A program made the position numbers and the translations under genes. Shown in pieces: positions 10,280 through 27,631 of a stretch of 52,334 bases of DNA. This stretch comes from an uncultured archaeon (GTDB lineage: Archaea; Altiarchaeota; Altiarchaeia; JAFGQM01), in the NCBI GenBank assembly GCA_964391885.1, contig CAYMNU010000082.1, positions 1 to 52,334 of the forward strand, in the 5' to 3' direction. The notes below the pieces were generated by a model, which had not been told where the DNA came from, ran no database searches, and saw only the letters and a list, made by a program, of their open reading frames with translations. Position 1 is the stretch's first letter. Each line of letters starts with the position of its first letter.

Positions 10280-10413
10280 GGGCCCGTGGTCTAGCTCGGT
10301 TATGACGCCGCCTTTACAAGAACCCCTTTTCAGAAAAGGTGTTTCATCCCCAAAACGGGGTGAAGGGGTTTTAAATGAGGCGGAGATCGTTGGTTCAAAT
10401 CCTACCGGGCCCA
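10280..10413 (+). tRNA. tRNA-Val(UAC) with a 59-nt canonical intron (10319-10377)
   Basis: Acceptor GGGCCCG/CGGGCCC, anticodon stem CCGCC/GGCGG, TAC at 10315-10317, T-loop TTCAAAT. Perfect BHB (TTTA/TAAA helix, bulges CAA and TGA). No encoded CCA; one U-U mismatch in the T-stem. Confidence 0.95.
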
Positions 10414-13927: not shown

Positions 13928-14584
13928 ATGAGAAAAAGCCTTTTGGTTTTGCTGTCCATAGTGTTTGCGGTAGCCTTGCTCAATCTTTATTATTATCCGC
14001 AGCTGCCCAAGCTCATGCCAAGCCACTGGAACGCCGCAGGCGAGGCGGACGCATACATGGGCAAGGAGCTTGCGCTCATGATAATGCCGGGCATCATGCT
14101 TTTCTTGGCTTTGCTCTTCCACATAATGCCGATAATAGACCCGCTCAAGAAAAACATTGAGGGATTCAGGAAATACTTTGACGCGTTCATTATACTCATA
14201 TTCCTCTTCCTGGCGTTCATCAATTTCCTCATGATAGCATGGGGCCTTGGAGAGGAATGGGACATAATAAGCGCGTTCTCCCTGTGGCTGGCCGTGATTT
14301 TTTTCTACGCGGGATTCATGGTGAAGAAATCCAAAAAGAACTGGTCTATCGGCATCAGGACGCCGTGGGCGATGCTCAGCGACAATATCTGGGAAAAGAC
14401 CAACAGGCGGGGTGGGCAGCTTTTCCAGGTGATAGGGATTGCGATGCTTTCAGGCCTGCTAATCGGCGAATGGCTTTTTTTGGTATTGGTAACGCTTCTG
14501 GCTGCGGCAGGGGTGTATATCACATACTACTCATACTCTGAGTACCAAAAAGAAATCAAAGCCAGGAAAAAGAACAATCAGTAG
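13928..14584 (+). CDS. SdpI/DUF1648 family membrane protein
   Basis: 'PSHWNAAGEAD', 'NWSIGIRTPWAMLSDNIWEKTNRRGG'. Confidence 0.9.
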   Translation: MRKSLLVLLSIVFAVALLNLYYYPQLPKLMPSHWNAAGEADAYMGKELALMIMPGIMLFLALLFHIMPIIDPLKKNIEGFRKYFDAFIILIFLFLAFINFLMIAWGLGEEWDIISAFSLWLAVIFFYAGFMVKKSKKNWSIGIRTPWAMLSDNIWEKTNRRGGQLFQVIGIAMLSGLLIGEWLFLVLVTLLAAAGVYITYYSYSEYQKEIKARKKNNQ

Positions 14585-14618
14585 CCACTGCTCACTGCTC
14601 ATTGGCCTGCATCAGCCC

Positions 14619-14626
14619 TTTTTATA
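14619..14626 (+). promoter_or_regulatory. TATA box upstream of the structured region
   Basis: TTTTTATA about 20 nt before the ATG at 14646, predicting a TSS near 14646-14652. Confidence 0.5.
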
Positions 14627-14716
14627 GCCTGCTTCTATCATAGCTATGGACGTATCAGAAAGATGCAGAATAATGTTCAGCAATAAGCACCAATCCGAAA
14701 GAGTTGTGGTAGCATC

Positions 14717-15031
14717 CGAAGAGAGCATCGTAGCGCTCTGCCCGCAGATATGCGCGATGCCTTCGTTTGCATTGGCTTAGGCGGCGTCTTGGGGGGCGCC
14801 GCCTTCGCAATCAACATACCGCGGCTATTATGCCGCGGTATGAACTTGCATGGCAAAGTCAAAAGGACTTTGCCAGTCTCGCACGATGAAATCGTGCGAT
14901 TGCAAGATAAAGTGTCTTGCAATACCTAGCTCTGCCCTGGTTGTGAGCTATCTTGCAATCAACCCCATCTTGGGGGCTCAAAAATAAAGCGGAGGGATAC
15001 CAAAAAACCTATATCATGGGGCGAAAGCCCC
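14717..15031. ncRNA. Unclassified highly structured element (about 9 consecutive hairpins)
   Basis: Stems at 14779-14804 (8 bp), 14815-14842 (11 bp), 14851-14875 (10 bp), 14879-14899 (9 bp), 14899-14923 (11 bp, one GU), 14927-14950, 14963-14975 and 15018-15031 (GAAA loop). Confidence 0.55.
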
Positions 15032-15041
15032 CTTCCCTATC

Positions 15042-16205
15042 ATGAACACTGTAGAAAAGCTGCAGATACTTGGCGAAGCCGCAAAGTACGACGTCTGCGC
15101 GAGCACCTCGTGCGGCGAGGGGGCAGTCAAAAATTCCAGAAAGGGCGAAAGCCGCATAGGCAGCCTCACGGGCCCGGGAATCTGCCACTCATTTGGGCCT
15201 GACGGAAGGTGCATATCCCTCTTCAAGGTGCTTATGAGCAACCGCTGCCAGGGCGACTGCAGGTACTGTACAAACAACTGCGAGACAGAGAGAAGGCGCG
15301 CCAGTTTTGAGCCCGATGAGTTGAGGGAAACCTTTTTAACGCTCTATCACCGCAACCTCGTAGAAGGCCTCTTCCTAAGCAGCGGCGTCGCAAAAAGCGC
15401 AGACGAGACTGAGCAGGGGCTTATAGAAATCGCAGAGAAGCTGCGCTCGAAAGATAATTTCCACGGCTACATCCACCTCAAAATAATGCCCGGAACATCG
15501 CGAAGCCTGGTAAGGCACGCAGCCGAAGTGGCGGACCGGGTCTCGCTGAACCTAGAGGCGCCCAACAGGCTGAGGTTCCAAGAGATTACAAGCACCAAAG
15601 ATTTCGGCATCGATTTGCTGAGGAGGATGCGCTGGGCGCAGAAGGCCGTCGACAAGCAAAAATCCGGCCAGACCACGCAGTTTGTGGTGGGGGCATGCGA
15701 CGAGAGCGACAGTGAGATACTCTCGACGGTAAGTGATGTTTACGACAAGCTGGAGCTGAAGCGCTCTTATTTCTCTGCCTTCATCCCGGTGTCGGGGACA
15801 AGGCTGGAAGGCCATGAGAAGACGCCGCTGATGCGCGAGCACCGCCTCTACCAGTGCGATTTCCTGATGCGCAAATACCACTTCCCTCTTGAAGAGCTCG
15901 TCTTTGGAGAGGGGGGCTGCCTGGAGCTTGGTAAAGACCCCAAGATGGCGATGGCCCTCGCAGATCCTGGCAGGTTTCCTGTGGAAATAAACGAAGCGGA
16001 TTATGGAGAGCTCCTGAGGGTTCCAGGATTGGGGCCCAACTGCGCATATCGCATAACCCAGGCGCGGGATGCCGGCCACAGGTTCAGGGACCTAAGCGAG
16101 CTCAGGAATCTGGGCGTGGTGCTCAAGCGTGCAAAGCCCTTCATCTCTGTCAACGGGGTCAGGCAGACAAGCCTGGCTTCATTCCAAAATGCTATCAGCG
16201 CATAA
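15042..16205 (+). CDS. Putative DNA modification/repair radical SAM protein (TIGR03916-like) with C-terminal HhH
   Basis: 'AAKYDVCAS', 'CQGDCRYC', 'EGLFLSSGV', 'REHRLYQCDFLMRKY', HhH 'LLRVPGLGP'. Confidence 0.9.
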   Translation: MNTVEKLQILGEAAKYDVCASTSCGEGAVKNSRKGESRIGSLTGPGICHSFGPDGRCISLFKVLMSNRCQGDCRYCTNNCETERRRASFEPDELRETFLTLYHRNLVEGLFLSSGVAKSADETEQGLIEIAEKLRSKDNFHGYIHLKIMPGTSRSLVRHAAEVADRVSLNLEAPNRLRFQEITSTKDFGIDLLRRMRWAQKAVDKQKSGQTTQFVVGACDESDSEILSTVSDVYDKLELKRSYFSAFIPVSGTRLEGHEKTPLMREHRLYQCDFLMRKYHFPLEELVFGEGGCLELGKDPKMAMALADPGRFPVEINEADYGELLRVPGLGPNCAYRITQARDAGHRFRDLSELRNLGVVLKRAKPFISVNGVRQTSLASFQNAISA

Positions 16206-26917: not shown

Positions 26918-27631
26918 TCAACGGGGACGCCTTTTCTTTTTGTTGAAGTCATGAGGTTCATGGGGCTCGTTCTCACGCATTTGCCTGGCGCGACTTTCCG
27001 AAGCAATTCTACCATACCTCCAGTTTTCGGAACCCCTACCATAAAAGGTTTCTCTACCCCTACGTATATCTCGAGAGGGAAGCTTATAAAGATCCCGAAG
27101 CATGGCTTCTGCGGCTTCCGGATTTCTGCGAGAAAGATTAGAAGTCCTGTTTAGTATATCCACGATTCGCTGAGACCTTGCAGTGCCTGCATTTTGGTGT
27201 ACCCACCGGCTGGATTCTAATTCAGCCAACTGGCCGGGACGTCTGGACAGAGTATCGACGACTGCAAATGCATTGTAGTTGGTGCCGGCTATCTCTCTTA
27301 TGGGTTCCCAGTGCTTGAGTACTGTAGGGCCAAGACGCCTAAGGCGCGGATGGCTCTCAAATGCCATGCGATCGTATCTGTGAAAATCTCCAGATCGCGC
27401 AGCCTCTACCATTCCAGGCACTCTCGCTTCTGCACGCATTGCTATCCTATGCGGCTGCAGATGTCTGTATAAGCCAACACCGCCCACACCCAATGCGCCT
27501 GCACCAATCAAAGCTCCAGCAACGACTGCGCGGCCTGTCGGCGTTAAAACACCCCTCGGTTTGCGCCTCTTTCCAGATTCCAGTATACCCTTCGGTAAAG
27601 ATGGGGCTTTGGGGGCTTTTCTTGGTTTCAT
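26918..27631 (-). CDS. Arg-rich hypothetical protein with a single TM
   Basis: Basic N-terminus, Gly/Ala hydrophobic segment 'AVVAGALIGAGALGVGGVGLY', basic tail. Confidence 0.7.
   Translation of the reverse strand: MKPRKAPKAPSLPKGILESGKRRKPRGVLTPTGRAVVAGALIGAGALGVGGVGLYRHLQPHRIAMRAEARVPGMVEAARSGDFHRYDRMAFESHPRLRRLGPTVLKHWEPIREIAGTNYNAFAVVDTLSRRPGQLAELESSRWVHQNAGTARSQRIVDILNRTSNLSRRNPEAAEAMLRDLYKLPSRDIRRGRETFYGRGSENWRYGRIASESRARQMRENEPHEPHDFNKKKRRPR

Follow-up and report, generated by a model that had tools for sequence, protein, structure and literature searches.

A hairpin run upstream of an archaeal radical SAM gene is probably a composite of a conserved small-gene locus and an inserted repeat

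Introduction

What accounts for a dense run of hairpins that ends immediately upstream of a radical SAM gene? The question is raised by a 52,334-nt stretch of DNA from an uncultured archaeon of the Altiarchaeota, referred to throughout as the window, whose assembly amounts to 1.13 Mb in 86 contigs and is 84% complete. The run occupies a 457-nt gap between a membrane-protein gene with SdpI/DUF1648 domains (13928-14584) and the following gene:

15042-16205, + strand: radical SAM gene (NCBIfam TIGR03916, 384 bits)

A sequence-only reading of the window had put 14646-15031 forward as a candidate for a single novel ncRNA or a long leader of the radical SAM operon, with a non-autonomous element as one alternative. 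Here the interval is compared with related loci, with the rest of its own genome and with wider sequence collections.

Results

Hairpins of the interval

It is clear that the consecutive hairpins are real. Perfect inverted repeats are present at 14779-86/14797-804 (8 bp), 14815-25/14832-42 (11 bp), 14851-60/14866-75 (10 bp), 14879-87/14891-99 (9 bp) and 14899-907/14915-23 (9 bp), the last of these having an alternative long-range pair, 14898-909/14949-60 (12 bp). Two 5-bp GC stems lie further 3′: CCCCA/TGGGG at 14963-75, and GGGGC-GAAA-GCCCC at 15018-31, which is the GNRA hairpin that had been placed at the end of the run, 10 nt before the ATG. The 457-nt intergenic RNA has a minimum free energy of -185 kcal/mol, and against dinucleotide shuffles folds with z = -8.7 on the + strand and z = -5.4 on the opposite strand. 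Genome-wide, 293 perfect hairpins (stem of at least 8, loop of 3-8) were counted in 1.126 Mb, or 0.26 per kb; compared with this, five perfect stems of 8-12 bp in about 200 nt of the window are a strong local excess. The stems within the 44-codon open reading frame (about 14700-14775) are imperfect and are probably incidental to the coding sequence. The sequence-only reading had recognised no RNase P, SRP or riboswitch motif, and the Rfam check agrees: no family matches the window region, even at an E-value of up to 10. At permissive thresholds, nothing came near a gathering score among the window region, the other copies of the repeat described below and six related loci, where the best matches were of 16.5 and 15.6 bits with E-values above 1.

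The 44-codon gene and its promoter

The TATA box and the reading frame that had been noted at the start of the run are both present, and what had been treated only as an open reading frame turns out to be conserved:

14585-14601, + strand: upstream promoter motif CCACTGCTCACTGCTCA, a direct repeat of CTGCTCA, with conserved spacing to the TATA box in all related small-gene loci
14619-14626, + strand: TATA box CCCTTTTTATAG of the small gene, conserved in every homologous locus
14646-14780, + strand: protein-coding gene of 44 aa, MDVSERCRIMFSNKHQSERVVVASEESIVALCPQICAMPSFALA, identified by conservation in the family and by codon-position pattern

Searched with a profile of two peptides, seven of the eight genomes in this Altiarchaeota family each gave exactly one copy of the gene, and the other 53 genomes of the class gave none. 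Among five of the genes compared pairwise, differences at codon positions 1, 2 and 3 numbered 107, 108 and 210 respectively, the third position changing about twice as frequently as either of the others. An exhaustive search of 1.84 billion proteins returned three representatives, each of 44 aa, and in a genome of another genus (G002) a homologous 44-codon frame of equal length lies upstream of the radical SAM orthologue. Because it is found in single copy across the family, changes preferentially at third positions and keeps a constant length of 44 aa, the frame is, on this comparative evidence, a real gene. Profile searches that included PDB and Pfam gave no Pfam, NCBIfam or PDB match to the protein; AlphaFold, given the single sequence, produced a low-confidence model (pLDDT 64) that was not used.

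The TATA box looks functional, CCCTTTTWATA being conserved 20-27 nt upstream of the small-gene ATG in every homologous locus, and its position predicts a leaderless transcript that would start from the ATG at 14646 or nearby. Together, the upstream motif and the TATA box would act as a strong archaeal promoter which drives the leaderless 44-aa gene, 3′ of which lie the conserved non-coding blocks described below. The motif CCACTGCTCACTGCTCA is also found 5′ of a TATA-like box at three other sites in the genome, on contigs C5, C6 and C57.

In metagenomic contigs with the small gene, this gene comes after SAM synthetase and before either the radical SAM gene or Kae1. Kae1 directly follows the locus in G001, G004, G006 and L043; the radical SAM orthologue is missing from G001, G003 and G004, all of which keep the small gene. 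Judged by gene content and order, the radical SAM gene is a neighbour of the small-gene locus and not its constant partner.

Conserved blocks downstream of the small gene

Downstream of the small gene, five blocks, B1-B5, are common to the related loci, and B4 has been lost in the window:

14779-14804, + strand: B1, GC-rich hairpin with a G-rich loop, directly 3′ of the stop codon, in all 9 loci
14963-14975, + strand: B2, small hairpin CCCCA-TCT-TGGGG, native to the small-gene locus
14980-14998, + strand: B3, A-rich block and then GGAGG, AAAAATAAAGCGGAGGGAT, conserved across the 9 loci
15010-15016, + strand: TATATCA, resembling a TATA box and 26-32 nt 5′ of the ATG of the radical SAM gene, from a reading of the sequence only
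15018-15031, + strand: B5, GGGGC-GAAA-GCCCC hairpin with a pyrimidine-rich tail, the last hairpin of the small-gene locus, in all 9 loci

B1 and B5 fold in the same place in 9 of 9 loci with differing stem sequences. For B1 this conserved form is a hairpin with a run of G in its loop, and the G-U pairs that it contains in G001, G004 and G007 work only on the + strand. For B5 it is a GC hairpin with a T/C-rich tail on its 3′ side; in 6 of the 9 loci the loop has four bases and is mostly of GNRA type, and the inner stems vary between loci (C/G, TTC/GAA, CTT/AAG). B5 is present whether the radical SAM gene or Kae1 comes next. We infer that B1 and B5 are + strand RNA hairpins which would end or stabilise the small-gene transcript.

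The remaining blocks are less uniform. B2, whose stem sequence also differs between loci, is found as GCCC..GGGC just 3′ of TTCACTATCAA in 8 of the 9 loci compared, G004 having diverged there, and the block that holds it reads TTCACTATCAAGCCC..GGGC in the related loci. In G004, GGGGGG replaces the GGAGG of B3; no open reading frame lies 3′ of B3, and on the minus strand B3 would seem to resemble the BRE/TATA of the small-gene promoter. B4 is GACCTGGGCG in the relatives, and the window has the TATATCA block instead. A small open reading frame across B4/B5 was considered and rejected by inspection, since most loci have no start codon there and the indels are not in frame.

TATATCA is a candidate promoter, in which case a near-leaderless radical SAM mRNA would start after B5. 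Alternatively, the radical SAM gene may be read through from the small gene, with the repeat described next as an operon spacer. Any effect of the interval on radical SAM expression is one that we infer.

Copies and structure of element E

The strongest hairpins of the run belong to a dispersed repeat, here called E, whose copies have either orientation with respect to neighbouring genes. A count of genomic copies had been called for in the sequence-only reading; a search of the window's own assembly, with alignment, gave three further copies of the stretch at about 14809-14909, making four of this core, and nhmmer found none beyond the four:

14809-14812, + strand: AATC, conserved tetranucleotide immediately 5′ of the insert, presumably its target or left cleavage motif
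14813-14960, + strand: element E, window copy, a non-coding dispersed repeat of 148 nt, diverged and internally shortened
14815-14842, + strand: hairpin P1 of the window copy, inverted repeat
14851-14875, + strand: hairpin P2, inverted repeat
14879-14899, + strand: hairpin P3, inverted repeat
14898-14909 with 14949-14960, + strand: helix P4, with an alternative local hairpin at 14899-14923
C10:51759-51970, + strand: E copy
C75:40071-40339, - strand: E copy
C27:844-1056, - strand: E copy

The copies are 148-269 nt long, share sharp 5′ and 3′ boundaries, have unrelated flanks and contain no conserved open reading frame. E starts with AACATACC and ends with CTTGTAATC; each of the four copies follows (A)AATC and has TAATC as its 3′ end, with neither terminal inverted repeats nor a variable target duplication. 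Every copy lies between co-directional genes, just past the 3′ end of a gene, two of them being oriented along the flanking genes and two opposite to them.

In the long copies the 5′ hairpin P1 is CATACCCC..GGGGTATG, and P4 is a long-range helix of 12-16 bp whose 3′ arm is the terminus of the element; P2 and P3 are identical in all four copies. Inside P4 of the long copies is a module closed by CCCCGGCT/AGCCGGGG-TATG, which holds two hairpins. The C75 copy has a second two-hairpin module, located inside the P1 loop, and the window copy has lost the module inside P4, which is its right-end hairpin. On the alignment of the four copies 94.6% of cells are paired, against 31-38% with slid partners, and four pairs have changed on both sides (two in P1 and two in P4), a number reached by 8 of 500 shuffles in a test that rests on only four sequences. 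Compensatory changes in P1 and P4 have preserved the pairing of the stems. In the C75 copy, P1 contains one G-U pair that can form only in the + strand of E.

The window copy is the most diverged, with 85% identity as compared to 86-96% among the other three. The alternative pairing of 14898-909 is peculiar to it, the other copies having two central mismatches there. Since it is the most diverged copy and has lost its right-end hairpin, the window copy is probably an immobile relic.

E as an insertion

E is positioned exactly within the conserved TATCAA|GCCC, between B1 and B2. Eight related loci are continuous across TATCAAGCCC where the window has E, one, G004, being too diverged to read there, and the AATC that flanks the insert is in these relatives part of the unbroken TATCAAGCCC. 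Without E, the window is collinear with 8 related loci in an alignment across TTC(A/G)C(T/A)ATCAA|(G/C)CCC. The sequence-only reading had pointed to a 9-nt direct repeat; this repeat, GCAATCAAC, is perfect and brackets the insert at 14807-15 and 14955-63. It arises because the native site stands on the left, and the terminus of E followed by the resumed native sequence stands on the right. That reading had also proposed collecting homologues upstream of radical SAM genes, and in G002 and L044 there is no E in front of the radical SAM orthologue. On these alignments E is very probably the insertion of a dispersed repeat, and the interval as a whole is probably a composite of two unrelated things, the conserved small-gene locus and E inserted in it.

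A BLAST search with one full E copy, which covered 40 relatives, gave matches in this genome alone. Exact-pattern scans of genome, metagenome and viral contigs for the invariant core of E gave none, as did a scan of metagenome contigs for the junction of B1 with the insertion site. Since no E was found outside this genome in the collections scanned, there is no within-species polymorphism of presence and absence, and no direct sign of recent movement. The protein flanking the C75 copy is 35% identical to that of G001, nominally of the same genus, and is too divergent for an empty-site comparison.

The resident IS200-type element

The genome encodes a Y1 (HUH) transposase, TnpA, at C35:22825-23175, which scores 126.5 bits with PF01797 and 136.7 bits with the IS200/IS605 model NF033573; with the RAYT model it scores 46.8 bits, below the cut-off of 80. 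The insertion sequence (IS) is multi-copy: contigs C33 and C71 each carry an identical left end at an edge, and C70 carries a right end. G006 and G007 have homologous copies, and the one in G007 lies a short way 3′ of its small-gene locus. No TnpB-type protein (PF07282) is found in the genome, and an omega-RNA reading of E was dropped on that account.

Comparison of copies gives the ends of the IS as AAATG|AC..CCCC-hairpin-GGGGTATC ... CCCC-hairpin-GGGGTAY-N17-TGTAATG|, and those of E are AAATC|AACATACCCC-hairpin-GGGGTATG ... CCCCGGCT..AGCCGGGGTATG-N9-TGTAATC|. Both the full E copies and the IS have a conserved AAAT[C/G] on the left flank and a right terminus TGTAAT[C/G], without terminal inverted repeats; the three long E copies and the IS each have a subterminal CCCC...GGGG-TAT hairpin at each end, both on one strand. 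The layout, order and strand are equal, and the last base of the tetranucleotide, AATC in E and AATG in the IS, changes at both ends together. The pattern GGGGTAY-N6-22-TGTAAT[CG], which was derived after both elements had been seen, has 4 matches in the genome against 0.5 in shuffles, and all four are right ends of the IS or of E. In a family-wide scan without the final [CG], the other matches were IS right ends or were at the level of a reversed-pattern control.

Other features of the two elements correspond less closely. In Smith-Waterman alignment against shuffles the ends of E and of the IS give p = 0.02-0.2, which is marginal, and the two have no common internal sequence; therefore E is not a simple deletion derivative of the IS. 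The left hairpin of E is only 2-3 nt from the presumed cleavage site, a distance that is 7 nt for the resident IS and 19 nt for IS608, and the tnpA gene of the IS is on the strand opposite to that with the TAM-like asymmetry. Inspection for complementarity between the cleavage site and a four-base guide 5′ of the hairpin foot found none that was convincing in either IS or E. One might speculate that the 5′ arm of P4 (GATT...), which pairs with the right terminus (...AATC), is an extended equivalent of such guide pairing. The likeness between the ends is one of architecture, and because their alignment is only marginal we regard the link between E and the IS as moderate and not proven; that E is of IS200/IS605 type has, in our estimate, chances a little better than even.

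Elements of the IS200/IS605 group have subterminal palindromes on one strand and insert 3′ of a fixed tetranucleotide without duplication (PMC3201880), and gene-less derivatives, of which PATEs are an example, are mobilised in trans in Geobacillus (PMC10055086). By analogy, E would be a PATE-like non-autonomous element inserted immediately 3′ of AATC. Such elements move as single-stranded DNA, which the Y1 (HUH) TnpA cuts and rejoins after recognising their end hairpins in folded form. For E, this would account for the preservation of its stems through compensatory changes.

D dimers

The pair of hairpins inside E is part of a larger set, the D dimers, about 17 of which are found in the genome. 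They have the form CRCG-hairpin-GYGCRC-hairpin-CGYG and are dyad-symmetric, with units in alternating orientation. Each D stem is different yet perfectly paired, and a dimer is usually capped by a copy-specific outer stem. D modules, with such outer stems, are nested in the end hairpins of E in 3 of its 4 copies. Five of the family's eight genomes contain the junction motif of D; it is absent from the other 53 of the class and from the viral contigs scanned.

Discussion

The best reading of 14813-14960 is the one that had been offered only as an alternative, a non-autonomous element. The core of the run is a multi-copy element unrelated to the downstream genes, as the sequence-only reading had foreseen as an outcome adverse to its main proposal. 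Several other explanations of the same hairpins have nevertheless to be weighed.

The four copies of E might be paralogous genes for a structured ncRNA with a cellular function, their likeness to IS200 ends being coincidental. The compensatory changes that keep P1 and P4 paired, together with the identity of P2 and P3 in the four copies, are what such a family would show; the G-U pair in P1 of the C75 copy, which works on one strand only, and an orientation independent of the neighbouring genes, which fits stand-alone genes, point the same way. However, there is no common promoter-like sequence upstream of the four copies and no Rfam match, and E is found in none of the 40 relatives or of the collections scanned, although functional ncRNAs are usually conserved across a family. 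Furthermore, the window copy lacks a whole module and the C75 copy carries an additional one in its P1 loop, which is how decaying or nested repeats behave. We consider a family of ncRNA genes unlikely.

It is also possible, and in our view similarly improbable, that E and D together are REP/BIME-like palindromes retained by the host, as stabilisers of 3′ ends, terminators or DNA-structure elements, and spread by recombination or by a RAYT-like activity. The alternating orientation of the units in some 17 D dimers is as in BIMEs, the D junction motif is restricted to this family, D modules are present in most E copies, and all E copies lie just past the 3′ ends of genes. On the other side, the only Y1 transposase in the genome is IS200-type, falls short of the RAYT cut-off, is multi-copy and is flanked by its own end hairpins and not by units of E or D; moreover, 4 copies of E and about 17 of D, in a genome that is 84% complete, are far below typical REP populations.

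A broader proposal is that E and D may form one self-propagating population of single-stranded-DNA palindromes, an archaeal counterpart of REPINs and BIMEs driven by the IS200-type TnpA, whose modules nest in each other's loops. Some would have been co-opted beside the 44-aa gene, and B1 and B5 may descend from them. We put this proposal forward as a doubtful one.

The remaining two explanations fare far worse. That E is a conventional MITE of a DDE transposase, with GCAATCAAC as its 9-bp target-site duplication, would account for the perfect 9-nt direct repeat that brackets the insert and would suit a lineage whose Altiarchaeum genomes are reported to be MITE-rich (PMC11602168), but E has no terminal inverted repeats, in all four copies the supposed duplication comes down to an identical AATC(A) and does not vary with the site, and its right-hand repeat is in part the conserved terminus of E itself, paired in P4; we regard this as very improbable. 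Equally hard to credit is that the whole of 14646-15031 is one regulatory leader, riboswitch or attenuator of the radical SAM operon: the interval is co-directional with the operon, the ATG is only 10 nt past the last hairpin and the ability of 14898-909 to pair with either 14915-23 or 14949-60 is attenuator-like, but the first third is the conserved protein-coding gene, the middle is the repeat that the radical SAM orthologues of G002 and L044 do not have in front of them, the remainder is equally conserved where Kae1 comes next, following the 44-aa gene and not the radical SAM gene, and the alternative pairing is peculiar to the degenerate window copy. The comparative data largely refute a leader, and they do not support a single novel ncRNA that serves the operon. 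What may survive of that idea is a transcribed and structured 3′ region of the small gene, with B1 at its start and the GNRA-capped B5 at its end as conserved elements; E, or the interval as a whole, may also be transcribed and act as RNA.

Taking the interval as a composite, the locus illustrates that a repeat inserted next to conserved native hairpins can give the appearance of a long structured leader. E provides a boundary-resolved example of a hairpin-rich non-autonomous element without terminal inverted repeats in Altiarchaeota, and its proposed link to the IS can be tested with oligonucleotides and one purified protein. The family-restricted 44-aa gene, previously undescribed, has a conserved promoter motif and a conserved structured region downstream, and lies between the genes for SAM synthetase and Kae1; it may be of greater interest than E. 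This gene and the population of D and E hairpins are the parts worth a further look.

Comparison with known systems

B1 and B5 resemble bacterial intrinsic terminators, or the stem-loops that stabilise mRNA 3′ ends, in being GC hairpins after a gene, often with a GNRA-type loop and a T/C-rich tail, and in keeping their position while the stems covary. They differ from bacterial terminators in that the tails in the window are C-rich, and a simple promoter/terminator scan detected no terminator, this being a bacterial-type scan that is not applicable to an archaeon. Termination in archaea is generally credited to T-tracts, not to hairpins.

Genomes of Ca. Altiarchaeum hold 146 MITEs per Mb, the highest density among archaea (PMC11602168). 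The phylum is shared, and these genomes too are dense in small intergenic non-autonomous repeats. The elements of that census are bounded by terminal inverted repeats, unlike E, a distinction drawn from their published description.

With the REP, BIME and REPIN elements and their RAYT transposases (PMC2817692, PMC3116915), E and D have in common that they are clustered, short, extragenic palindromes in alternating orientation, restricted to a lineage and accompanied by a Y1 HUH transposase. Here, however, the transposase is IS200-type by NCBIfam and multi-copy, the repeats number in the tens and not the hundreds, no tag of the GTAG/CGTC type was seen, and the host is an archaeon.

As to PATEs, the resident IS shares with E the architecture of the ends and not their sequence, with AATG in place of AATC; the left hairpin of E abuts the presumed cleavage site, its right terminus is sequestered in the 12-16 bp helix P4, its genome has no TnpB or omega-RNA partner, and its mobilisation is a proposal. 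On the other hand, PATEs are, like E, short, non-coding and present in several copies, with hairpins near both ends on one strand. In them too, a fixed tetranucleotide flanks the left end and is found again at the right terminus, with neither inverted termini nor a variable duplication, and, as with PATEs, an IS200/IS605 TnpA gene is found in the same genome as E.

Small-gene locus

The small gene encodes a 44-aa protein whose family has the consensus ME..xKCxITFxNKHQSExVVVGSEExIV..SPEIxVVPSF; the family is confined to one Altiarchaeota family, and no relatives were found in Pfam, NCBIfam or the PDB. The features considered here are:

Window 14646-14780 (+): 44-aa protein gene, with homologues at loci L037-L046
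Window 13928-14584: SdpI/DUF1648 membrane-protein gene
Window 14585-14601; this genome's contigs C5:~13761(-), C6:~14801(+) and C57:~11233(-): motif CACTGCTCACTGCTC
Window 14980-14998: block B3, A-rich/GGAGG, conserved
L011:38-90 (relative G005): tandem repeat CATCAAATCACAAGTTT, ~17 nt, ~3 copies, upstream of the radical SAM orthologue

The small gene is flanked on one side by the SAM synthetase gene and on the other by the Kae1 gene (or the radical SAM gene). The SAM synthetase gene directly precedes it in loci L043 and L044; only in this genome is the SdpI/DUF1648 gene interposed between the two. In G005 the stretch preceding the radical SAM gene has the tandem repeat in place of the hairpins.

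Motif CACTGCTCACTGCTC is kept in the small-gene promoters of all relatives, two of which (G004 and G006) carry two copies. This genome has it at four sites, each followed about 15-20 nt downstream by a TATA-like box, and it may serve a small regulon as an operator or an upstream promoter element. On the minus strand, B3 reads CCTCCGCTTTATTTTTG, which is similar to the BRE/TATA of the small-gene promoter; B3 could drive an antisense transcript across blocks B2 and B1 and the small gene.

Hairpin modules and arrays

Elsewhere in this genome, dyad-symmetric two-hairpin modules (n = ~17, 45-60 nt) follow the pattern CRCG-hairpin-GYGCRC-hairpin-CGYG; their junction motif is seen only in genomes of this Altiarchaeota family.

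Two-hairpin modules: C5:5844-5952, C8:15967-16018, C14:13498-13553, C23:12571-12626, C27:4169-4460, C34:5439-5548, C44:4722-4777, C69:20617-20668 and 27110-27218, C74:39040-39089, C85:975-1026
Hairpin arrays next to minus-strand tRNA genes: C27:4123-4696, C14:13366-13713

The stem sequences of the modules all differ, and pairing is perfect in each. A copy-specific outer stem often encloses the module, as if it had been inserted into a hairpin loop. The arrays adjoining tRNA genes comprise up to 11 hairpins in succession, and long hairpin-containing introns appear to be present in the C14 tRNA and in a window tRNA-Val (about 10281-10413); the sole tRNA called in the window by ARAGORN is tRNA-Asp.

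An IS200-type insertion sequence

A multi-copy insertion sequence of ~670 bp, with tnpA as its sole gene, is also present, and the assembly is broken at its copies.

C35:22683-23353: IS200-type insertion sequence
C33:82-96, C71:82-96, C70:3903-3930: its ends
Relatives: G006 L027 and L030; G007 L040

The G007 copy lies just 3' of the small-gene locus. AAATG is always found on the preceding flank and the terminus is TGTAATG; the target-motif asymmetry is on one strand and tnpA on the opposite strand.
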